Below are positions 10,695-60,900 of a DNA stretch of 64,000 nucleotides, piece by piece (position 1 is the first letter of the stretch; the number at the start of each line of letters is the position of its first letter). The notes beneath the pieces are model-generated. The model was not told the origin of the DNA. It worked only from the letters and a program-made list of their open reading frames with translations, and searched no databases. Made by a program: the position numbers and the translations under genes. This stretch comes from Lingula anatina (lineage: Eukaryota; Animalia; Brachiopoda), in the NCBI GenBank assembly GCA_051362555.1, contig CM120642.1, forward strand, positions 14,136,001 to 14,200,000, read 5' to 3'.

Positions 10695-13600
10695 GCAGAG
10701 TTTTTGGATCGAAACGTTTGATCAATTTTCAGTTTTAAGATAACTTATGTGACAATAACATGACTCCAAATGATAACATGAAATCAGACAAAATTTTTAA
10801 TTGAAAAGTTTGATCAATTTTCAGTTTTAAGATAACATGTGTAACAATAACATATGACTCCAAGAGCACTGTGAGCACATATTTAGACAATTTTCTCTGT
10901 CTGAGCCAAAATGTGAAAACAAAATGTGAAAACAAAATGTGAAAACTTGCTCTTGTTAATTTGCAGAGTAATGATGTAAGTTTGGTTTGGTGCATGTCAC
11001 CATAATAGAATTCAAGGAAAAACACCTCAGTCACATCCTGTGTGATTAAATTCATAATCTTAATAATGTGGGTAGTGATAATCAAAGCATCCTTTTTAAA
11101 ACTGGAAACAGGTGCATCTAATAATGCTATTGTACTTGTTGCTAATATTTTCCATTGAAGTCAATTGTACTCCTAACAGTGGCAATAAGGTGACAAATAC
11201 GTGGGCAGTAGTTGTTGAGGAAAGCAGTCTTTTACGCAGTTAACGTGAAAAAATATATCATATTGAAATTTTGCTGTAAAGTGTTGAGGACGTCATTTTA
11301 AACAAATTGGTCTTTCAGTGCATGGTAAATAAAAGTGAAAAATTCTACAATATTGGATTCTCATTTCAGACATCTATACAATAAACTTATTTGCCACAAA
11401 TGTACAATTAAACTAAAACATACTAAGTTGTTTGGTACAGTGATGGAATATAAATAGCTTCACTCAGTCAACCTTTCATTATTTCTTTCTTTTATTCTTT
11501 TTATTTATTTACTTATAATTTTTTTTTTTTGGGGGGGGTGGGGGGTGAAACTTCTGAAGCTGGTAGGAGGAGGGAACAAGTATCTTGCACTCCTCACCCC
11601 CCAGTTCTGCCACTGTAAACAGTGGTGACAGTCTCACATCATAACTACACACCACGGTGACACAGATACCATGTCAATCTCATCCTCTCTAAACTGACTT
11701 GCTAGGCAAAGTTTTTGAACAAAAAGTTTAATCAATTTTCAGGTTTAAGTTAACTTGTGTGACAATAACATGACTCCAAGAGCACTGCGAGTACATATTT
11801 GGACAATTTTCTCTGTCTGAGTCAAAATGTGAAAACTTGCTCTAGTTCATTCGCAGAGTAATGATGTAAGTTTGGTTTGGTGGATGCACCATAACCTTCT
11901 CTTCTATAGAATTCAAGGAAAAACACCTCAGACATATCCTTTCTTCATGATTAAATCCATAATCATAATATTGTGGGTAGTGATAATCAAAGCATCCTTT
12001 TTAAAACTGGAAACAGACGCATCTAATAACGCCATTGTACTTGCTGCTAATATTTTCAATTAAAGTCAATTGTACTCCTAACAGTGGCAGTAAGGTGACA
12101 AATACGTGGGCAGTAGTCATTGAGGAAAGCAGTCTTTGATGCAGTTAACGTGAAAAAATAAATCATATTGAAATTTTGCTGTCATGTGTTGAGGACATGA
12201 TTTTAAACAAATTGGTCTTTTAGTACATGGTAAATAAAAATGAAAAATTCTACAATATTGGATCCTCATTTCAGACATCTAAACAATAAACTTATTTGCC
12301 ACATATGTACAATTGAACTAAAGAAATATATATATATATATATATATGTAATTGGGGCCTAAAGGTTTTGCTGGGGTGGGTGATTGGCAGAGTGGTGGGG
12401 GAAGGGAGAGAGGAAGAAGGACAGAAAAAAATATATTTGCTTTGCTTCACTTGGGATCACTGTGCATTTTAACCTAAAACATACTAAGTTGTTTGGCACA
12501 GTCATGGAATAACAATAGCTTCACTCAGTCAACCTTTCATTCCTTCTCTCTTTTATTTTTTTAATTCATTTACTTATATTTTTTTTTTTGGGGGGGTGGG
12601 GGAGGGGACAAAACTTCTGAAGCTGGTAGGAGGGAGGAACAAGTGTCCATGCACTCCTCACCCCCACCCCCAAGATGATGATCTGCCACTGTAAACAGTG
12701 CTGACAGTCTCTCATCATAACTGTCTCACACACCATGATGACACAGATACTATGTCAACCTCATCCTCTCTAAACTGATTTGCAAGGCAAAGTTTTTGAA
12801 CAAAAAGTTTGATCAATTTTCAGTTTTAATTTAACTTGTGTGACAATAACATGACTCCAAGAGCACTGTGAGCACTTGTTTTGACAATTTTCTCTGTTTG
12901 AGCCAAAATGTGAAAACTTGCTCTTCTTCATTCACAGAGTAATGATGTAAGTTTGGTTTGGTGCATGTCACCATAACCTTCTCTTCTATAGAATTCAAGG
13001 AAAAACACCTCAGTCACATCCTGTGTGATTAAATCCATAATCATAATAATGTGGGTAGTGATAATCAAAGCATCCTTTTTATAACTGGAAACAGACGCAT
13101 CTAATAACGCCATTGTACTTGCTGCTAATATTTTCAATTAAAGTCAATTGTACTCCTAACAGTGGCAGTAAGGTGACAAATACGTGGGCAGTAGTTGTTG
13201 AGGAAAGCAGTCTTTTACGCAGTTAACGTGAAAGAAATAAATCATATTGAAATTTTGCTGTCATGTGTTGTGGATATGATTTTAAACAAATTGGTCTTTC
13301 AGTACATGGTAAATAAAAATAAAAAATTCTACAATATTGGATACTCATTTCAGACTTCTATACAATAAACTTATTTGCCACATATGTACAATTAAGCTAA
13401 AGAAATATATATATGTAATTGGGGCCTAAAGGTTTTGCTGGGTGGTTGGTTGGTGGGTGGTTGGCAGAGGGGGGGAGGGGGGGAGGGAGAGAGGAAGAAG
13501 GACAGAAAAAAATATTTGCTTTGCTTCACTTGGGATCACTGTGCATTTTAACCTAAAACATACTAAGTTGTTTGGCACAGTGATGGAATAATAATAGCTT

Positions 13601-14200
13601 CACTCAGTCAACCTTTCATTATTTCTTTCTTTTATTCTTTTTATCTATTTACTTCTATCTCACACACCTAAAAAAAAAAAAAAAAAGCATATTGAAAATG
13701 TGTTTCCATGTGTTGAGGATGTGATTTTTTTTTTAAATTCGTCTTTGGGTGCATGGTTATTGAAAAATTATACAATGCTGGATCCTCATTTGGGAACCCT
13801 ATACATAAAAATGTATATGATACATATGTTCAACAATTAAAAAATATATGGAAGTGGGAAGAGCACACAAATCAAAAATTTCTGCCTGACTTCATTGTGG
13901 TTATTGCATATTTAAAATAGATTAAATTTGTATGGCACATTTATGAAAAACTAATAGCTTCATTCAGTAAACCTTCCTTTTTTTTTGGGGGGGGGGGGGG
14001 GGAGTGGTGGTGGTGAGGGGGAGGTGAAAGTTCTGAACCTGGGAGGAGGGGGGAACAAGTGTCCATGCACTCTTCACCCCTCCCCACCCCCAGATCTGCC
14101 ATTGTAAACCAAGACAGTGCTGACTTAACTGTCTCAAACACCACAGTGACACAGATACCGTGTCAACCTCATCCTCTCTTAACTGATTTGCAAGGCAAAG
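10695..14200. repeat. Long-period tandem repeat (~0.9-1.1 kb unit, 3 copies plus a degenerate partial 4th)
   Basis: Anchor GACTCCAAGAGCACTG at 10856, 11772 and 12853. The unit end cctcatcctctc..aactga recurs at ~11680, ~12760 and ~14170. Confidence 0.93.
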
Positions 14201-43539: not shown

Positions 43540-46500
43540 TCACATGTAAAACATGAACTTGCTGCGAGACTGAGATGACAGTCTCTGCCACTTGTATTTC
43601 ACACTCACATATCTCACACAGCCATGGAAAAATATCAGGAATCCTAAAATAAATCACAATTTGATGTTAGAATTGAGGATACCTTCACAAATTATGATAA
43701 AAAGTGTTGCCCCTCTTCATCAAACAGGCTAATACAGTCAGCAATGTTAACACTGGCCCCACGCTAAATGCCAATATAGAATTGAAGGCCAAGCTGTAAA
43801 ATATTTGAAATTTCTTCAGTTTCTGGACACCTTTTCTACTTTTAAGTCTATTTAGACCAGTAAAGATTTTAGCAGAGATTGTTAGTCATCTTGTGCTTGA
43901 GATACTTAAACACAATTTTCAGGAGGGCACCAAAAATAATCGATGCAAAACCTCTCTGTGCCTCCCCCAAAAAAAGGGCACGCAAAACAAGAAAACATTA
44001 AACATTTTATAAATGATATTGACAATAAGATTTTTTTTTGTAGAAGTAAATTACTCACCTAAAAACATAAGCAACCACCAGAGCCAAGAGTCAGCATCTG
44101 CATATCCAGAACCACTGATCCAGTGACTATGCTACAAAGGAACATTCACCCATGTTAGAGTTATTATCAAACATATCTGAATAAAACTTAAGGACATTAA
44201 AAAAAAATACATATTGTAACGATTTTACATAGCCTTAAAATTCATGGTAAAATTGCCGCAGTAAGCTTTAGCCTTTTGTTTACATTCTTGTGTGTGTTGA
44301 ACTTTGAACCTTAAGTTGGAATGGCTTGTAAGTGGTATCAGTTTACGAAAGAGGGGATTGTGGTGTCCAGTAGAGGGGTTGGCGGTCAACCATTCAAGGC
44401 CGTCCACTTTTACTCTGGCTGCCAGTCAAAGTAGCAGTGAACCATTCAAGGCCGTCCACTTTTGAAATGTATAAATACAGCTGCTCTTCGCAGTGTCGTT
44501 CAGTTAGAGTTCAGTTAGAGTTACTGTAGAGTATAGTGGCAGTACTCAGTGAGAGTATAGTGTCAGACTTAGTTTCACAACTTAGTTTGAGTCAGTTTCA
44601 CAATATAGTTCCAGTTAGTTTATTGTAGCTGAGTTGCAGTTGTTTAAATTAGAAGTACAGCAGTACAGCAAGAATAGAGACAGTGTTTAGTAAAAGATAC
44701 AGAAACATGTACATTTGTGTTGAGAGTTATTCGTAGAAATAAAGTTTACAAAACAGAGACCTTGTTTTGTTGGTGGCAGCGAAGTAAGAGAACCGTACAC
44801 TGGTGGCAGAAAAGCGAAGACCTTTACACTGGTGGCAAGCGCTGGGATACAGACTTTAACACGCCAAGAGAAAAGCTCAAGAAATCAAGAAATTCAAAAT
44901 GCCTCCTAAAAAGGACAACAGATCTGACCAGGAGGAAGTGAGAAACCTGGAGGAACAGATTGAAGAAGCCTGCAGAGCTCTTGAAGCTGAAAAAGAAAAT
45001 TCTACTCACAGAATTCAAGTTGCTGTAGAAGAAGCAGAGGCAGAGAAAGAAAGATTAATTAGAAAAGCAAAAGAAAATGCTGACATCTTAGAGGCACGTG
45101 CTGAGGCTGCAGAACAGAGAGTCAGAGCCCTAGAGCGACAGAAAGAGACAGAAATAGAACACAGAGCCCAGAATGAACGCATATCAGAAACAATAACCCC
45201 TACACTTACCCCATTTCACAGAATTAACGGCCGTAGTAACTTTGAAATACCTTTGCCCAGACAGACTCTCTTTAGTGGAAAAGAATCCTGGGAGGGTTTC
45301 ATTGAGCCATTCAAAGCACTAAGCCAGACTTGTGAATGGAGTGAGTCTGAGAAACTGTTTAGATTATGTAACAGTCTGCGTGGTGAGGCTGCTGATTTCG
45401 CCTTTGTGCAGTTGTCAGCAGAAGTGGTAAATTCCTACCCTCTGCTACAGAGGGCGTTGCAAAACCGATTTCAAGAAAAGCGCACTACAAGCTCCTATCT
45501 GTCAGAGCTAGAAAATAGAAAGCTTAGTTCAAGAGAGAAACTGCCAGAGTACATATCCGATATTAGAAAGTTAGTGTTAAAAGGTTACCCGACGGCTGAC
45601 TGCACCACACGTGAGGCCATTGCATTGCGCCACTTCATAAAAGGGTTGCCAGACCATCAAGCCGCCGTGGCAGTGGGCATGAAAACGCCCAAAAATCTAG
45701 ACGAAGCAAGGGAGGCCCTTGAAATGTATAACAGTCTAAGAGAAGAGGCAGTGAAAAGACCAAGTGTTAGGGCAGCAAATCCTGAGGCTGTTGTAACAGA
45801 AAGTCAGCTACACCAGCTTGAAAAGAAGTTTGACCAGAAGTTAGATGAAATTAAAGACTTGATAATGAAAGAGAAAGAAAAAGACAAGAAAAGTCCTCCA
45901 CCACCCAAGTCAGAAAATTGGAAAAACAACGTAGAGTGTTTCAAGTGCCATAGATATGGGCATCTGGCAAGAGAATGCAAGGCACCTGTGAAAGAGGCTC
46001 AGCATGTAAACAACCAGGGAAACTGAGAAGGGGCATTCCAGCCGGCCAGAATGAACCCCTAAAAACACCTGTTGACCGTGACATTGAAACCGTCAGTTGT
46101 AGAAATGCTAGTGTTTCTTGGCCAGTGAAGATTCAGGGCCAAGAAGTGAACTTTATTGTAGACACTGGTGCGTCAAAAACAATTATATCTACCCACAGTT
46201 ATGAACAAATTCCCCATGATTTTAGACCTGAACTGAAAAAGACTCATAGAAAATTGCAGTTGCAGGTTGCAGACAGTAGAAACATTGAAATTGAAGGCCA
46301 TGTAGAAATAAAATTTCAGTCTGGTGAAGAAGTGTTTATTTGGGACATGCTTGTAGCAAAAATAAAGGATGATGGTTTGTTAGGAATGGACTTCCTGTGC
46401 CATCATGATTTTTCACTGGGTGTGAACGGACTGAAACTTAATGGGAAGAGAGTGCCCTGTTTGGTTGAGAGGGAACCAAAGCATGCCTTTAGAGTGACAG

Positions 46501-49500
46501 TGACTAATGACGTTATTATTCCTGCAAACAGTGAGTTGGTCATAGAAGGGACAGTTGATTCTAGCAAAATAAAATCAGGATTTGGACTGGTAGAGGCAAT
46601 TCCAGAGAAGTCGAGTGATTTTCTGATCGGACATGTGCTAGTTGATCCTTTCACAAGAGACAATAAAATACCTGTGAGACTCCTTAACCCTTCTAATGAA
46701 GACATTTCACTTTTGAAAGACACCTGCGTTGCTCATTTACATGAAGTAGACCATGTGATTGGTGATAAACTTGAAGATAGCCTTTCTGTGCCCACCTTAC
46801 GAGCAGACTTAACCCCTGGTAAACAAAAGTCAGACTTAACCCTTCATAGCCCAGAATTGCCTGAGTACCTGGCTGACCTCTATAAACAGTCAGGTGAGAA
46901 TTTGACTGACTTTGAAAGATGTGAATTAAAGAAACTCCTGCAGAAGCACAGTGATGTTTTTGCCAAGTCTTCCAGTGACATGGGTCACACATCTGTCGTA
47001 AAGCATAAGATTGTCACTGGTGATGCAAGACCCATAAAACAGCAGCCCAGAAGACCCCCTAGAGCGTTTGCTGGGGAAGAAGAGAAAATAATTCAGGAAC
47101 AGCTCCAAAATGGTGTTATTAGAGAGTCCACCTCACCTTGGTCATCTCCACTAGTTTATGTCAAGAAAAAGGATGGAACAACAAGACCCTGTGTTGACTA
47201 TAGACGCTTAAATGATGTAACAGTGAAAGATGCTTACCCTCTTCCTCGAATAAATGACTGTTTAGACTCTCTTGGTGGCTCAATTTTCTTTTCAATAGCT
47301 GATTGCCAGAGCGGGTATTATCAAATCGAGGTAGCAGAAGAAGATAAGCCAAAGACTGCATTTGTGACCAGAAATGGTTTATATGAATATAATGTTATGC
47401 CTTTTGGTCTTTCTAATTCTCCTTCAACCTTCGAACGGTGTATGGAACTGATTTTACGTGGTTTGCAGTGGCAGACAGTGTTGATTTACCTTGATGACAT
47501 CATCGTGTTTGGTAAATCGTTTGAAGAACACTATAAGAGACTTGACGAGGTTTTTAATCGTCTTGGGAAAGCAGGACTAAAACTGAAACCAAGCAAATGC
47601 AGGTTGTTCCAGACTGAAGTTCAGTTTTTGGGACATGTAGTGACACAAGATGGCGTTAAACCAGATCCTGAGAAGGTAGAGTGTATAAAGAAATGGCCAG
47701 TTCCCAGGAATCTGACTGACGTACGTAGTTTTCTAGGACTGTGCTCATATTATCGTAGATTTATAAAAGGATTTTCAACAAGAGCTGCTCCAATTAATCA
47801 CCTGCTCCAGGCCGGCCAGGCGTTTACTTGGATGGACTCTTGTCAGACAGCATTTGAGGACCTCAAAAGTGCCCTTACAGGTAATGAGGTAATGGCGTAT
47901 CCGAGAGACAAAGGGCTGTATATTCTCGACACTGATGCTTCAGCCACGGGCATTGGTGCCGTTTTATCTCAGTTACAGTGGTGTGAGAAGACCCAGAAAG
48001 AAATAGAGAAACCAGTCGCGTATGCAAGTAAGTCATTGACGAAAACTCAACGCCGTTACTGCGTGACTAGAAAAGAACTGCTTGCCGTTGTTACCTTTGT
48101 TCAACAATTCAGACACCATTTATTGGGTAGACAGTTTTTGGTACGAAGCGATCACAGTGCCCTCCGATGGGTTATGTCCTTTAAGGAGCCCAATGATCAG
48201 ATGGCCAGATGGCTGGAAGTGCTATCACAGTATGATTTTAAAATAGAACACCGAGCAGGGGCCAGGCACGGTAACGCAGATGCAATATCGAGATTTCCAT
48301 GCGACCCAGATGAGTGTCCATGCTATGATGGAGAGTCCATTTTAAGCAATTTGCCATGCGAGGGTTGCGTACAGTGTAAGAAGAAACATGAACAATGGTC
48401 CAGATATCTGGAAGAAGAAGTCGTCCCTTTAGTAACCAGACGAGTGACAGAAAACCGAAAGAAAGAACTAAAATCAGACAACGGAGTCTGTGGCAGTGGT
48501 CAAGCATTGGGAAACCGAGGAAAATGTCCAGTAAAACGTGTGTATACAGCAGCTTGTTCAGTTTTATTGACAGGCCTTTACATCCTACTGACATTGTTCT
48601 TTGCAATCCTGAGCTGGGTGACCATGAAATTCAGGTGTATCTTTAAGGAAGTTAGAGCACTTTCTCTTCGAAGGATGAGAGTTTCCAAGAAAAAGGAAGT
48701 GCTGCCTAGAGAAAACTTGACATTCAAGGATCAAGATTTTTCTCATGGTGATGAAGATACAGATCTCAGTGAATCTGAGAGTGACAGAGATAGACTTCCA
48801 GCCGAGTGGCTGGGCAGTTACACTGTGAATGAATTGTTTAATTTGCAGCGTGAAGACCCCGAGTTGAAGACTGTGCTGTACTGGAAGGAACAGTCATCAC
48901 AGAGACCAGAAAGAGATAAAGTGGCCGCAGAAAGTCCTGCAGTGCGACAGTTATGGTTGCTTTGGGACCAACTCGTGCTGCAGGAGGGCATTTTATATAA
49001 AAGATGGGAAACTTTAGATAAGACAGGTTCCTTTTTACAGATATTGGTTCCGAGAGAGATGAGGAACGAGGTGATGAATGGCGTGCATGACAAAGTCACG
49101 TCAGGTCACCTTGGCGTCAAGAAAACAGTGAGCAAGTTGAAAAGACACTTCTACTGGTACAAGATGAAAGAAAGTGTAAGAGATTACATAAGAAGATGTG
49201 CTATTTGTGGTGGGAGAAAAAGGCCACGGTCAAGACCCAAGGCTCCTTTGCTAAGATATGCTGTAGGCGCTCCCATGGACAGAGTGGCAACAGACATCTT
49301 AGGACCTTTTCCAGTCAGTGAAAGAGGCAATAAATATATTCTTTTAGCAATGGACCAGTTTTCCAAATGGGTGGAGTGCTCTGCCATCCCTGACATATCA
49401 GCTAAAACTGTAGCACACAAGCTAGTGACAGAGTTTTTCTCTAGATTTGGCCTACCCCTTGATCTCCATTCAGACCAAGGTAGCAACTATGAGTCACAGT

Positions 49501-52500
49501 TATTCAAACAAGTATGTCAACTATTAGAAATAAATAAAACCCGAACATCCAGCTATCATCCCTCAGGAAATGGAATGGTGGAGAGATTCAATATTGTGTT
49601 ATGTGACATGATATCAGCTTACGTGTCAGAAGACCAACGGGATTGGGACATTCATTTGCCTTTATTGACTGCAGCATACAGGTGCTGTAAACATGAAAGC
49701 ACTGGTTATTCCCCTAATTTGCTTATGTTGGGCAGAGAAGTTCACACAGCTACAGAACTGATCTTTGGAAAACCACCAGAAGACCGATCTGTGACGTCTC
49801 CTTCAGAGTATGTCAAAATGTTGCAAGAGAAAATGACTAGAATTCATGAAATAGTGAGATTGCATTTGAAAAAGGACTTTCAAAGGCAGAAAAGAGACCA
49901 TGACACCCGTATTTCGCAAAATAACTATAAAGTTGGTGACTTGGTGTACTTACTAGATAGCACTAGAACAGTGGGACTGAGCCCAAAGCTGAAACGTGAT
50001 AAATGGCAAGGACCTTTTGTTGTTGTCAAAAAGCACAGTGATTTGTTGTTTGCAGTGAAAGGCAAGCCTAAGTGTAAAATGAAGATCGTGCACCATGACC
50101 GTCTTAAGCCATTTTTAAGTGACCAAGTTCCAGATTGGGTGTCCAGTTTGCAGAAATGTTTACATAAAGGTAATTATGTAGAAGGCAGTCCACTGAAACG
50201 TGAAGGAAGTGCCATCAAACACAGAATGAAGCAGAGTGGCCAATCTAAACAAGTGCAAGTACCCAAGAACCAACCTGACAGTAATTTGAGAAATGAGGGA
50301 AGACCGCAAAGGAAAAGAAGACCTCCCAAGAGATTTGCTGATTGACTGTGACAATGACCTTTTAAAGTGACCATTATTATTAATCAGACAATGAACTTTA
50401 AAGTGAACATTATTAATAATCAGACAGTGAACTTTGAAGAGAACACTATTATGAATCAGACTATGAACTTAAAATGATTATCATTGTTGAACTTTAGAGT
50501 AATTTTATTAATCAAAGTGACACTGAACTATTGAATGAACTTTATGAACTGACTGAATTTTTAACTGCTTAAATGTTTCAGAATATTTTTAGTTTTAACT
50601 GATTTAGTAGTTGGGCAGATCCCCGGTGGGATCAGACCTAGGGGGGGAGAGTGTAACGATTTTACATAGCCTTAAAATTCATGGTAAAATTGCCGCAGTA
50701 AGCTTTAGCCTTTTGTTTACATTCTTGTGTGTGTTGAACTTTGAACCTTAAGTTGGAATGGCTTGTAAGTGGTATCAGTTTACGAAAGAGGGGATTGTGG
50801 TGTCCAGTAGAGGGGTTGGCGGTCAACCATTCAAGGCCGTCCACTTTTACTCTGGCTGCCAGTCAAAGTAGCAGTGAACCATTCAAGGCCGTCCACTTTT
50901 GAAATGTATAAATACAGCTGCTCTTCGCAGTGTCGTTCAGTTAGAGTTCAGTTAGAGTTACTGTAGAGTATAGTGGCAGTACTCAGTGAGAGTATAGTGT
51001 CAGACTTAGTTTCACAACTTAGTTTGAGTCAGTTTCACAATATAGTTCCAGTTAGTTTATTGTAGCTGAGTTGCAGTTGTTTAAATTAGAAGTACAGCAG
51101 TACAGCAAGAATAGAGACAGTGTTTAGTAAAAGATACAGAAACATGTACATTTGTGTTGAGAGTTATTCGTAGAAATAAAGTTTACAAAACAGAGACCTT
51201 GTTTTGTTGGTGGCAGCGAAGTAAGAGAACCGTACACTGGTGGCAGAAAAGCGAAGACCTTTACAATATCACTTGGCTAAACTTCATTAAAGATTAAAAA
51301 GGAAAATTATTGGAAAAATATACTGTTGAAATTACTCTCACATCCAATGCACATGACTGGAACCTACAAGGAAAAGGGCAGAGGGGTAAGCCATATAACA
51401 CATGGTGCCATGACATAAAGGCAGATACCAAGAAACTAGGCAGCTTGGAGACAGCTTGAGATGATATTGGACATATGAAGGGAACTTGAAGGTCACCCAT
51501 GCCCCACAAGAGGTAATAAGCATATTGGATCCAAAGATGTCAACTATACTCACAAGCCATTTGATCAATGTTGTTTCAGATACCCCTCAAAACAGAACCG
51601 ATTTGACAGATAGTCTTCTGACTGAAGTCGGACAACGGACGGGGAAGGGGAATATTCAAAGTCATACAGCTTAGTTTCCATTCAGTTATTTACTAGTCAA
51701 CCAAACTGTTTGTCTAGTAGTCACACTCATATCCATAACAGCTTTAAGTGTCAAAGCCAAACTCCATTTGATTTTTTGCTTAATAGTGTAATATCATTTG
51801 AGCACTATTTCTTACCTGGACAATGGCCACCCACTTGACCATAGAGAGTCCAAAGCCAGCAAAGGCTCCAAATCTACCAGCTATAGTGGTGGATGCACAC
51901 ATGGCAAACAACAGGCCAAACCAGTTGAACAGGAATGCAACTGAAGCAATACAAGATATAACTGACTAGACAGACAAAATACTGACATTTGCCAAATATT
52001 AATTTGTCAATATGAAAGTTATAATTTGAGTTTACTATCATTTTGATAACTTACAGTCATGGTTTGTTCATATTATGATTCCTTATAATCTAAAATGTGT
52101 CCTGATTTTGGATTCAAGAAGAGGGAAACAAGTTTATTCCCACGATACAATATTCTCATTTTTAAGCTTATTACGAAGCTTATTTTCATATATCTCAATC
52201 ACAGAAAAATCGGTGTTCACTTATCTGTTAATGAATTAATTTATGCATTCTTACTCTTTCTAGCCCCAAGTATCTACTATAAGATTCTTTCACTTATATT
52301 GTACTTTGTTAGAGGCAACCTACTTAAAAATGTGCACATGAATATCCCATCTGTCCCAAGGGTCAGTTCATCAAACTGTTCACTTGAAACTTGCTGCAAA
52401 CAGATGATAAAATATTATAAATATTCAAACATTCTTCACTTGGTTAAACCATCTTTTGAAAAGTCAGTCTAATATGATAATGTTACAGCTATAACTACAT

Positions 52501-57900: not shown

Positions 57901-60900
57901 ATACATGTATCTTTATATGGCCTGAATGAGTACTTGTTACATCGGTTACAGCCCAGCTACATGTATGTACAATGCTACATGACAGTAAAAAAAAAACATA
58001 TTAGGAGGTAAAAAGGATTTTAAATTATTTTAATAAATATTAAAACTATTTACACATATATTACTCATTGACAACTTCAAAACCTGAAGCCATAAAGAAG
58101 TGTTGTTAATAATTTTAACTATATGTACAAAGTTTGTGTCCTCTGTGGCAAAATTGGCATTCAGGTTTTTATTTTGCCCACAACTAAGATAGTCACGGAA
58201 TAATGTCGTAAGTTTCAGCTTCCCAGTTTTCTTCAGTGTCACTGTTAATAGCACTATTATCTTCTTCATAATTGGCATCTGTATCGTTATCATCATTATC
58301 ATCATCATTAGACCCATCCGTGTTACTCTCTTTCTTTACACTTGATTGTCCATTATTTTTGTTGCTGTGATGCAAATCTTCAATCAGCCAAACAAGGTTT
58401 TCAACCAAAGCCATCACTTGGCCTTGATTAATTATTATTTTATACAAATCCCTCTTGTCTATGAGCATAAAGTTTAAGGATAGAAACTCAGTACAAGACC
58501 TCAGCAGTGTTTGCATGTTGTATCTATGGCCCAAGATGAACCTTTCGCTTATGTTCTCTTTTGTGATGGTCTCACAAAGGGAGGCCTCACAGATGTCTCT
58601 AAGTGTGCCTCCAGGACTCTCGGACCATTCTGAGACAGCTCCTGGGAAATCTTTGTCATTTGGCTTGTCTCTGGGGGACTTCTTGTGCACTTGGTTAGCT
58701 GTGAAGTCTTGCATTGGGGGATAGTCATCTGGATGCTTCACACTTACTAAGATGTCTATCAAAGGCTCCATGTTAAATTCATAATCATCTTCTGAAGACT
58801 CCATTTTTTCTGAATGGTCTTCCAAAGACTCCATTTGAGTGAATGATTGGTTCTTTTCCTGAAATGGTTTTAAATATATAATATCAGTTACAGTGTAAGG
58901 AAAAAATTACCGACTATATCTTGAATGTGAAGTACATTGAATAATATTCAAATTAGCCCTTATAGTCAGATGAATCAGATAAATCTACCTATGATTAAGC
59001 ATAAATATGCTATCTTCATTTGTTAAATGAAGAAGCTAAATGAAAAAAGATAAAGCAGTTGCAGTTGTTTGAAGCTTATTTGCCACATTCTATAATACAA
59101 ACCTCCACCCCTCTGTGTTATATTGCTAAGTTAACAGGAGCTTACTGAAAGTGGAAATTATAGTTTCTATACTCAAAATGCACCATATGTACATGTATAC
59201 GCCACCTCCTATGGTCTTGTCTTACTCACATCAATAATATATTGTATACATATATTGATTCAAACAACTTACGTATGAAGTGTTTACTTTGAACAACAGC
59301 AATCAATTTGATAATACTGCCCAACTGTGGTTATGTAATTTCTCTATACATTGATGTAATAACTGCATGAATGGGACAGAGAATGTGGAATTGTGTAAAA
59401 TGCATTAATATATAAATTAATATTTTTTCCCAATTCACATTATAGATATGTGTGTTCATATGACATACATAAAGAGACATTGCCCAGCTTTTATCAGTAG
59501 ATTTCAGAGTATTTTATTATAGTATAAAAGTCTATTCAGTGCACTTTTGACTACTTAGTTGTTCACAGCAACTTGACTCAATTTTACAATTTATCATGCA
59601 TTGCAAAATTTTAAAGTGAAGTCCTTTCCAACATCCTTACAGTTTCTGAAGTGACGTACTGGTCGTCCCGGACATTTTGATCAACCTAATTGTGGACATT
59701 GTGGTCACTTTATATCCTTTAACCTTACCCTTTTGAATATATGGAGCTTTTGCATACAAGCATTTACCTTTCTGAAGGCTACAAATTCCTAGTTGTTTGA
59801 CAGATGGATTGGTGTTTGAAGATGTTGATTATTTCATTATGTACACATTTCTTTTCATTTAAATTACTATATTGTGATTGAACCTGTAGTCCTTACTCTT
59901 GCCTAATAACCTAGTCTTATTAAATACTATGTTGTTAATGAGTGAATGCTTTTAATCATCTGGTATAATAGATCAGTCAGTTGCTAATGCCAAGTACAGT
60001 ATCAGAGTTGGACACAATTTTCACTATGTTGTAATGTCCATATGTTGAATATATATGGATTATTGCCTGCAGTTTTGCTTCCAACTTTGCATCTCTAATG
60101 CTGGAACTTATATTTGTGGCTCACATGCTGTAGTATAGATATTGCTTACCTAATTTGCTATGAACTCAAATTTCTCTGCACATAGAATACTCTGCACCCA
60201 GACTCTGCTAAGTACTGAATGCTATATATAACAGATACCATATGATGGCCATCTCATTATTAACCATGGCCATGATGATATAACCTTTCAGATAGTATAG
60301 CTTTTAAGTCAAATGCAACTCACCTGTTTAAAATGAAAATGTTTCATGGGTAACTTAAATTAAGACTGCGTAAACTAGAAGCAGTGAAGTTAAGGTGTAG
60401 AATGTTAAAACATACACAACTTACAGATACCTGTTCCTGTGCTTAATACATGTCCAGGTATGAGAATAATTAAGTAGATATATTTGTATCATGGGCTAGT
60501 CATCAGCTTAGATGATATCTCCTGCATGTTTAAATTACATCAGTGATAGCCTTGGCATACCTCTTTTAGTGCTATACCTACCAGTGTCAGCGGTTAAGTC
60601 ATATCCAGGTGTGAACACAAAATAGACATGATAGTCCATGGGATAGGTGCTTCCAAGTTAGATGATCACCTGGCCAGTAATTAAGGCCCTGCTTCCCCAT
60701 GAATGGTCAGATTATATCTCAGCACAGGATATGGCATTATAATCACCATGGGGTAATGATGGTATATACAGGTAGTGCTGATCCTCCCTGCAGGACCATA
60801 TGGACCAGTCAGAAACTTGAGATTTGTCTTTCCTGCCCACTTTTTCAAACTAAATGGTGCAAAATGATATGTTGAAAGATGGAGGTGTTCTTAAAGATGG

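Follow-up and report, generated by a model that had tools for sequence, protein, structure and literature searches.

A hydrophobic helix cassette between RNase H and integrase in the Pol of two lineages of env-less Gypsy retrotransposons

The window analysed here, a stretch of 64,000 nucleotides of Lingula anatina DNA, contains at positions 44215-51265 an intact, env-less Ty3/Gypsy LTR retrotransposon, in which the linker between RNase H and integrase carries a membrane-length hydrophobic helix. Gypsy Pol is usually taken as a soluble, particle-internal enzyme chain. Comparison with related sequences indicates that the helix-bearing cassette is an old, lineage-wide trait of two env-less Gypsy lineages, repeatedly lost, and not the recent insert in one element that a first-pass annotation of the window had suggested. 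The cassette is very probably a selected membrane-interacting unit.

An intact retrotransposon with a hydrophobic Pol linker

The element is organised as follows:
44215..44828, + strand: 5' LTR, 614 nt, TG..CA, with the ATAT target-site duplication just before it
44830..44848, + strand: primer-binding-site-like sequence, beginning TGG, one base past the LTR
44899..46026, + strand: gag, 375 aa from ATG, with a PNMA-like capsid match and a CCHC zinc knuckle
45954..50345, + strand: pol, encoding protease, RT, RNase H, linker and integrase (H2C2, rve, p58 C-terminal)
46017..46023, + strand: GGGAAAC heptamer with a hairpin behind it; predicted site of -1 frameshifting between gag and pol
50637..50651, + strand: polypurine tract upstream of the 3' LTR
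50652..51265, + strand: 3' LTR, followed by ATAT and matching the 5' LTR at 614/614 positions

Pol comprises 1463 codons in the -1 frame relative to gag, and the Pfam order is gag upstream, then PR-RT-RH-IN. The GGGAAAC heptamer is a candidate slippery site for the gag-pol frameshift. The identical LTRs, the TG..CA ends and the ATAT duplication bear out the earlier description of the element as intact. No third ORF for an envelope glycoprotein was found in the element, where the pol stop lies ~300 nt from the 3' LTR, and no small membrane ORF or sORF was found on its sense strand. The element lies intronic and antisense; the host gene around it is expressed and belongs to the NEDD4/Bsd2 family.

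The linker is not an assembly artefact, since it is spanned without indels by contigs from four DNA runs of four studies; many variant copies exist. In four RNA runs, of each of which 6-25% was read, there were only scattered reads, at most 0.8x across the linker, with depth near zero and no joints.

The following features were recognized in the linker, which measures 171 aa and is in frame with pol:
48267-48293, + strand: RNase H end (sequence motif)
48300..48431, + strand: Cys-rich RNase H extension, CDPxxCxCY..LPCxxCxxC..W..VVPL, with CDPDECPC at 48300 and CEGCVQC at 48357
48540..48626, + strand: uncharged hydrophobic run of 29 residues, KD19 2.41, opening a predicted 39-residue helix (48540-48656)
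48549-48620, + strand: 24-residue part of this run noted in the first-pass annotation (sequence)
48627-48695, + strand: basic tract (sequence)
48669..48806, + strand: basic-then-acidic disordered segment, predicted integrase N-terminal tail, pLDDT under 50
48807, + strand: WLGSY on the integrase side (sequence)

The first-pass annotation had placed all of its motifs correctly, and had rightly described the linker as in frame and the element as env-less. Hydropathy was scored on the Kyte-Doolittle scale in a 19-residue window (KD, or KD19). The peak value for the whole Pol, 2.41, falls on the linker run, the runner-up window in Pol reaching 1.04, and only 0.3% of linker-sized random stretches (sense codons, base composition of the element) attain it. 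AlphaFold2, with a 67-row alignment, predicts a 39-residue helix at Pol 863-901 (core pLDDT 93-95, flanks below 50), which in the window copy runs on into a basic amphipathic stretch. The earlier proposal of a membrane-length helix thus stands, 'TM' denoting in this analysis the combination of hydropathy scales and the AlphaFold2 helix. Between the end of RNase H and the helix, the window copy contains no in-frame Met.

The Cys-rich stretch and the following VVPL form an ordered extension of RNase H in both structure models, and probably bind zinc. The closest structures to the RNase H model are the CaMV and Ty3 RT, and in a fold search with RNase H plus the extension, all matches listed had RNase H/RT folds. 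The stretch had previously been counted as part of the membrane module. It precedes the first boundary motif (see below) and persists in relatives that lack the helix; it belongs with RNase H, is older than the membrane cassette and lies outside it. On the same two grounds, its position upstream of motif 1 and its presence in helix-less relatives, it was rejected as a candidate FAST ectodomain.

Distribution of the helix and selection on it

A first search yielded 24 relatives, and in 17 of them a hydrophobic window occupies the equivalent position. The profile for a second search was restricted to the end of RNase H and the Cys stretch, and was therefore blind to the helix; the best 120 of 900 matches were considered. 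Of 125 proteins, 85 had a whole linker, 68 of these being non-redundant. Among these 68 linkers, KD reaches at least 1.5 in 48, for a chance level of 14-17% of linkers, six are weak and 14 are without helix; KD of at least 2.0 is found in 31/68, with 2-3% expected by chance. Outside the linker, KD 1.5 is reached in 8/67 full-length Pols. The variable linker of the window copy shares a median identity of 18% (maximum 24%) with those of 47 other helix-bearing relatives. A further 137 proteins came from an index-free search; 83 of these more distant relatives had whole linkers, and the helix was present in 2/83. Proteins without a whole linker were left out (40/125, 54/137 and 8/55), as were the rows P0024, where the top-scoring window falls within an unrelated domain inserted there, and P0352, a long branch.

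Trees were computed from RT-RH-IN with the linker columns left out (FastTree, or quick IQ-TREE without bootstrap). In the clade to which the present element belongs (clade 1, SH 99), 51/60 rows carry the helix (KD of at least 1.5), five are weak and four are without it; outside clade 1 the helix occurs in 1/57 tree rows. That single outlier led to a second lineage (lineage 2) with a different Cys motif, in which 27/47 whole linkers have the helix and 17/47, half as long, do not. The two groups join with support 74, and both a single and a double origin are compatible with the tree. Helix-less rows are nested among helix-bearing rows at several tree positions. Linker length among helix-bearing rows is ~110-360 aa, and linkers that lack the helix have roughly half the length. 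The repeated clean loss implies that the cassette is accessory. Named hosts include the sea cucumber Holothuria leucospilota, with the helix, and a goby and a nemertean, without it; several relatives filed under bacterial symbiont genomes are read as host DNA.

The helix changes as quickly as its surroundings: in 16 related pairs, its identity was 0.53 vs 0.51 for the rest of the linker. Of its substitutions, 14/141 introduced a charged or amide residue, His or Pro, vs ~40 expected (p 3e-6), in a test on pairs pre-chosen as helix-bearing, with a simple neutral codon model and one pair without an aligned helix dropped. These comparisons show that what selection keeps, as judged by substitution patterns, is the hydrophobicity of the helix and not its sequence. 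Fast turnover together with few polar substitutions would fit a lipid-facing helix, and not a protein interface.

It is very unlikely that the segment is a soluble helix packing on RT, integrase or a host protein. Such a reading would account for the one long, confident AlphaFold2 helix, and the membrane call is a matter of hydropathy; however, the identity of 18% leaves no conserved residues, all faces are hydrophobic over 19-29 residues, the flanks are disordered, and turnover is as fast as in disordered linker.

The run might also be a neutral or nucleotide-level by-product, i.e. captured sequence, a T-rich RNA signal, or the trace of an overlapping or antisense gene. Linker length is indeed varied, 9/60 clade 1 members are weak or without helix, and two further ORFs overlap the linker of the window copy, one of 83 aa in an alternative frame and one of 118 aa antisense. 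Against this, prevalence is far above chance at a fixed position, and polar substitutions are few. The fraction of T by codon position is 0.29/0.67/0.20 (95 codons, 5 loci), i.e. high at position 2 only; for this reason, and with no acceptor-like pattern in the five loci, a polypyrimidine tract or splice acceptor was rejected. An overlapping or antisense ORF was likewise rejected as the cause of the run, the open frames not being common to the five loci and having no Pfam match. The first-pass annotation had itself proposed that length-variable linkers with no conserved hydrophobicity would point to neutral capture; in the relatives, hydrophobicity turned out to be conserved. The by-product explanation is scarcely credible, and these comparisons largely refute it.

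Boundaries of the cassette

The limits of the cassette were sought in motifs on either side of the helix:
48435..48446, + strand: boundary motif 1 (TRRV), where RNase H ends; putative protease site, within EVVPLVTRRV (48417)
48651..48662, + strand: boundary motif 2 (VRAL), score 8.4, the best linker match to the motif learnt from helix-less elements
48666-48677, + strand: alternative motif 2, LRRM (sequence)
48441..48656, + strand: putative released membrane peptide, Pol 830-901, 72 aa, or 77 aa with a cut at LRRM

EVRAL at 48648 lies 77 codons past EVVPLVTRRV at 48417. The putative peptide would consist of a polar N segment of 33 aa, the hydrophobic helix and its basic amphipathic continuation. 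Helix-less elements have a [VI]-R-x-[VLI] motif after VVPL. A weight matrix built from 62 such helix-less boundary motifs finds a second copy past the helix in clade 1 (z 4.6, 0/300 shuffles), with z of at most 1.7 in 12 control windows; the VRAL score is tied among the best in the whole window Pol. In lineage 2, the same matrix finds copies on either side of the helix (z 6.6 and 4.9), and the helix-less linkers score too (z 5.5). It gives no significant mark at the pre-RT junction (z 1.5) or at the protease N-terminus (z 0.6), though protease sites are expected there. When the matrix was trained instead on motif 1 of the helix clade, z was only 1.7, and a de novo motif scored in controls as well (z 3.0 and 3.6). 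For a Ty3-type protease, aliphatic residues are suitable at both P2 and P2'. A furin-type RxxR reading of motif 2 was rejected, the last Arg being absent in many lineage-2 motifs.

Median lengths in clade 1 and lineage 2 are respectively 84.5 and 88 aa for the cassette and, if motif 1 is cut, 30.5 and 22 aa for the N segment. No Pfam family scored above cut-off for the cassette. Because the boundary motif of helix-less elements recurs past the helix, the cassette, of ~85 residues, appears dispensable and is probably excised by the element's protease. Of the earlier idea that duplicated motifs bracket a released peptide, the duplication has therefore gained from a matrix test that is not circular, and the peptide would measure 72-77 aa; its release we infer from sequence.

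Possible functions

The function that we favour, with a likelihood somewhat short of even, is that of a removable membrane anchor for Gag-Pol, later cut away. Gag-Pol with the helix would be made via -1 frameshifting, hence at Pol-level amounts, and the helix would tether the precursor to the cytosolic face of a cell membrane. Since neither RT nor integrase can leave the cytosol, and clade 1 has basic flanks on either side, it would be expected to insert in the lipid in-plane, re-entrant or as a hairpin, an uncut single-pass helix not being viable with both enzymes in the cytosol; alternatively, it might insert only once released. The element's protease would cut both motifs, freeing RT and integrase and leaving a membrane peptide of 70-100 aa. 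The role would be accessory, affecting where particles assemble or are delivered and not core replication. A second hydrophobic segment in 10/48 clade 1 linkers and the equally basic flanks argue for an anchor. A precedent is Ty1, where SRP and Gag steer membrane-directed particle assembly, according to the available text of PMC3945221. On the other side, Pol lies inside the capsid, so that any tethering would have to take place before the particle is assembled, while it assembles, or via openings of the shell; an uncharged run of 21-29 residues could span the bilayer and send integrase into the ER; the charge bias of lineage 2 favours N-in/C-out; and the doubled motif was weak or unspecific in two further motif tests, two expected junctions being unmarked.

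Nascent chains with a long uncharged run are recognised by SRP. The helix could thus be a signal-anchor that diverts some Gag-Pol into the ER, where it is degraded or parked, lowering the amount of Pol or integrase; the charge of lineage 2 would fit N-in/C-out, and the helix is dispensable. Pol, however, is already tuned by frameshift efficiency, and deep retention, two flanking motifs and a constant cassette length exceed what a degron needs. We regard such a role in dosage or sorting as quite improbable.

Small protease-released membrane peptides are known from non-enveloped and polyprotein viruses. By analogy, a viroporin or penetration peptide might be cut as the particle matures, travel inside it, and serve to breach the membrane of an endosome, a vesicle or the nucleus. 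Cleavage in the particle would come first, which would solve the topology problem, a low copy number would be enough, and in the window copy the helix extends into a basic amphipathic stretch. Nevertheless, the core is an uncharged run (median 21 residues), unlike the amphipathic helix of a lytic peptide; amphipathicity past the helix is weak (0.57 vs 0.50 shuffled, 28/48); and no conserved polar or Gly face is present to line a pore. This function is unlikely, and more clearly so than a fusogen.

The first-pass annotation had likened the module to FAST fusogens. A FAST/sORF2-like peptide would be released, would sit N-out/C-in in the plasma membrane, and would mediate cell-to-cell transfer of particles without Env; we consider this improbable. 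The criteria are those in the available portion of bioRxiv 2025.03.14.642691, where sORF2/FAST proteins have their own ORF of 60-210 aa and an ectodomain of 10-50 aa. The sORF2 proteins described there measure 63-107 aa, with an ectodomain of ~30, are mostly myristoylated with a polybasic tail and a juxtamembrane Tyr, and in the Drosophila MDG1 group are encoded by an ORF of their own, located before gag or after pol. Our counts are given for clade 1 and lineage 2 in this order.

The sizes of the cassette and of the N segment (33 aa here, if motif 1 is cut) fit sORF2, and the element has neither env nor sORF. The cassette has no short ORF of its own, being in frame within Pol. Hydropathy and the predicted helix agree on a single membrane-length helix, alone in 38/48 linkers and accompanied by a second hydrophobic segment in 10/48. 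Gly at the new N-terminus, as required for myristoylation, was found in 0/42 and 0/29. A polybasic C-side (at least three K/R in 15 aa) occurs in the window copy, with five Lys/Arg, and in 21/48 and 7/29 relatives; the N-side is at least equally basic (23/48, 16/29), Lys/Arg counts in the N and C flanks of clade 1 being 2.48/2.48. Tyr after the helix is absent in the window copy and present in 7/48 and 4/29. For an amphipathic helix in the tail, another sORF2/FAST trait, the signal is the weak one given above (0.57 vs 0.50 shuffled, 28/48).

FAST proteins of the p10 type are marked by a juxtamembrane dicysteine and an ectodomain cystine loop. These marks are lacking in the cassette: in the window copy one Cys follows the helix and a pair of Cys lies in the N segment, a juxtamembrane Cys occurs in 37/48 and 12/29, and two N-segment Cys are found in 11/42, with scattered spacing. 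Net charge in clade 1 is C>N in 28/48 and N>C in 13/48; in lineage 2 it is N>C in 18/29, favouring N-in/C-out, opposite to FAST topology. The FAST-specific marks of the earlier comparison are thus traits of the window copy and not of the family. By the criteria in the available portion of bioRxiv 2025.03.14.642691, the cassette is placed by its sequence outside the sORF2/FAST family; a similar job is possible.

Further points concern biology. Proposals of FAST proteins cut from pistolvirus polyproteins (PMC12945298, in its accessible part) lend a fusogen some plausibility, and the cassette is accessory and repeatedly lost, like Env in Drosophila Gypsy elements (PMC13486581, likewise). Yet sORF2 is reported in the same text as stable and not repeatedly lost, the cassette lacks the signal peptide of the pistolvirus proteins, the frameshift product would be scarce, and the cut is expected inside particles. 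A broader hypothesis, which we hold to be doubtful, is that two Gypsy lineages of aquatic animals carry a spread factor in Pol, a protease-released membrane peptide doing the work of Env or sORF2 with no gene of its own. If true, an in-Pol factor would carry particles from cell to cell across membranes and would be gained and shed like env with switches of lifestyle.

Comparison with known systems

No report of a membrane segment in Gypsy Pol was found in the full-text literature searched, subscription journals and Repbase reports lying outside it. The cassette would be a new form of membrane peptide released from a polyprotein, of which an earlier mention is possible. The survey of the Gypsy 'bridge' region (PMC13524379) names, in its available text, RNase H-like and mini domains only, and no membrane segment. 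Screens for Env-independent fusogens covered short stand-alone ORFs only; as the sORF2 screen described in the available part of bioRxiv 2025.03.14.642691 looked at short ORFs with MGxxxS/T, it could not have detected a cassette inside Pol. The occurrence of the cassette across dozens of diverged families points to a whole class of accessory peptides so far invisible, and natural pairs with and without it make it testable whether env-less elements of aquatic animals differ in lifestyle (expression tissue, assembly site, spread among cells and species).

The element shares with env-less Ty3/Gypsy elements (Metaviridae) the LTRs, PBS, PPT, gag CCHC and PR-RT-RH-IN order, and differs from them in the hydrophobic cassette between RNase H and integrase. 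It is named here to the Ty3/Gypsy level; MolGy is an example of a named Gypsy clade (PMC6238403, available text). Errantivirus-type elements have env as a third ORF, whereas the present element has none. The sORF2 proteins resemble the cassette in that they too occur in env-less Gypsy elements and have one short membrane segment, a similar overall length (63-107 aa) and an N segment of ~30 residues; they differ in that the cassette is in frame in Pol, and myristoylation, polybasic tail and Tyr are not features of its family. Reovirus FAST proteins are similar as small single-helix peptides and, for the window copy, in juxtamembrane Cys and basic residues; unlike them, the cassette has no myristoylation site, conserved dicysteine or cystine loop, signal peptide, or consistent N-out/C-in charge bias. 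With the putative FAST proteins of some pistolviruses (PMC12945298, accessible part), the cassette shares a proposed release from a polyprotein, and it lacks the signal peptide present there. Ty1 (PMC3945221, available text) is likewise an LTR element using an ER-targeting route to set the site of assembly, which it does by Gag translocation, with no membrane helix in Pol.

Even on the plain anchor reading, the cassette would be a new design of retroelement polyprotein. Membrane peptides in RNA-virus polyproteins, such as potyvirus 6K1/6K2, picornavirus 2B/3A, alphavirus 6K and HCV p7, have anchor or pore roles. The cassette differs from these in residing in a reverse-transcribing, particle-packaged Pol, in having no sequence relation to them, and in being dispensable in many lineages; by analogy it would resemble them as a hydrophobic peptide of <100 aa lying between putative processing sites in an enzyme-bearing polyprotein.

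Variation of the helix among related elements

The linker between RNase H and integrase in the Pol of the Gypsy element carries an uncharged hydrophobic run of 29 residues (the helix, window 48540-48626). In 7 of the 16 pairs of related helix-bearing Pol proteins, conservation was lower in the helix than in the remainder of the linker, 16% against 69% in the extreme case; the pairs cited for low helix conservation are P0474/P0477, P0004/P0106 and P0124/P0134. These seven pairs hint that the helix turns over rapidly. In the second lineage, a separate group of Gypsy elements (P0461-P0514), the motif DDGRxxPK was found C-terminal to the helix in 12/29 helix-bearing linkers and in 0/17 helix-less ones.

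Long linkers, with the hydrophobic unit (a putative protease-released membrane cassette) in apparent tandem duplicates or triplicates, were observed in P0019, P0462, P0464, P0465, P0478 and P0492. A single contig from one DNA sequencing run (X10) displayed an in-frame skip of 249 nt (window 48549-48799) removing the helix and the putative boundary motif that follows it, a weak observation, as its short side spans only 27 letters.

Two further reading frames overlap the linker:
48395-48646, plus strand, alternative-frame ORF of 83 aa
48238-48594, minus strand, hydrophobic antisense ORF of 118 aa
Both were absent from the relatives checked, and the antisense ORF had no Pfam match.

The element and its surroundings

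The LTR end (window 44770-44848 and 51207-51265) contains TGGTGGC three times in series, twice within U5 and once at the primer-binding site. Protease and RT are separated by some 100 aa (window 46480-46780) that are kept among relatives, and no Pfam family scored above the cut-off there.

The element lies inside an intron of an expressed minus-strand NEDD4/Bsd2 (NDFIP-like) host gene (window 43570-51941); RNA reads from the exon at 44058-44133 extend beyond it, and the adjoining sequence matches positions near 51819 and 43614 of the window. Elsewhere in the window are an array of roughly 1.08-kb tandem duplications (10700-14200) and a minus-strand ORF of 237 aa (58193-58906).

Among the related elements, one locus (L013:7102-9102) has a downstream ORF of 666 aa with a TatD DNase domain. 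Several Gypsy Pol proteins (P0072-P0074, P0174, P0198, P0504 and P0511) are annotated within metagenome-assembled genomes of Thiodiazotropha and Sedimenticola, and these records are likely to represent contamination from the animal host.

The Cys-rich extension of RNase H

The Cys-rich stretch 3' of RNase H (window 48300-48431) is kept throughout the wider lineage and is modelled as ordered. It had no Pfam or PDB counterpart among the matches listed. This extension is probably an undescribed module that binds zinc.
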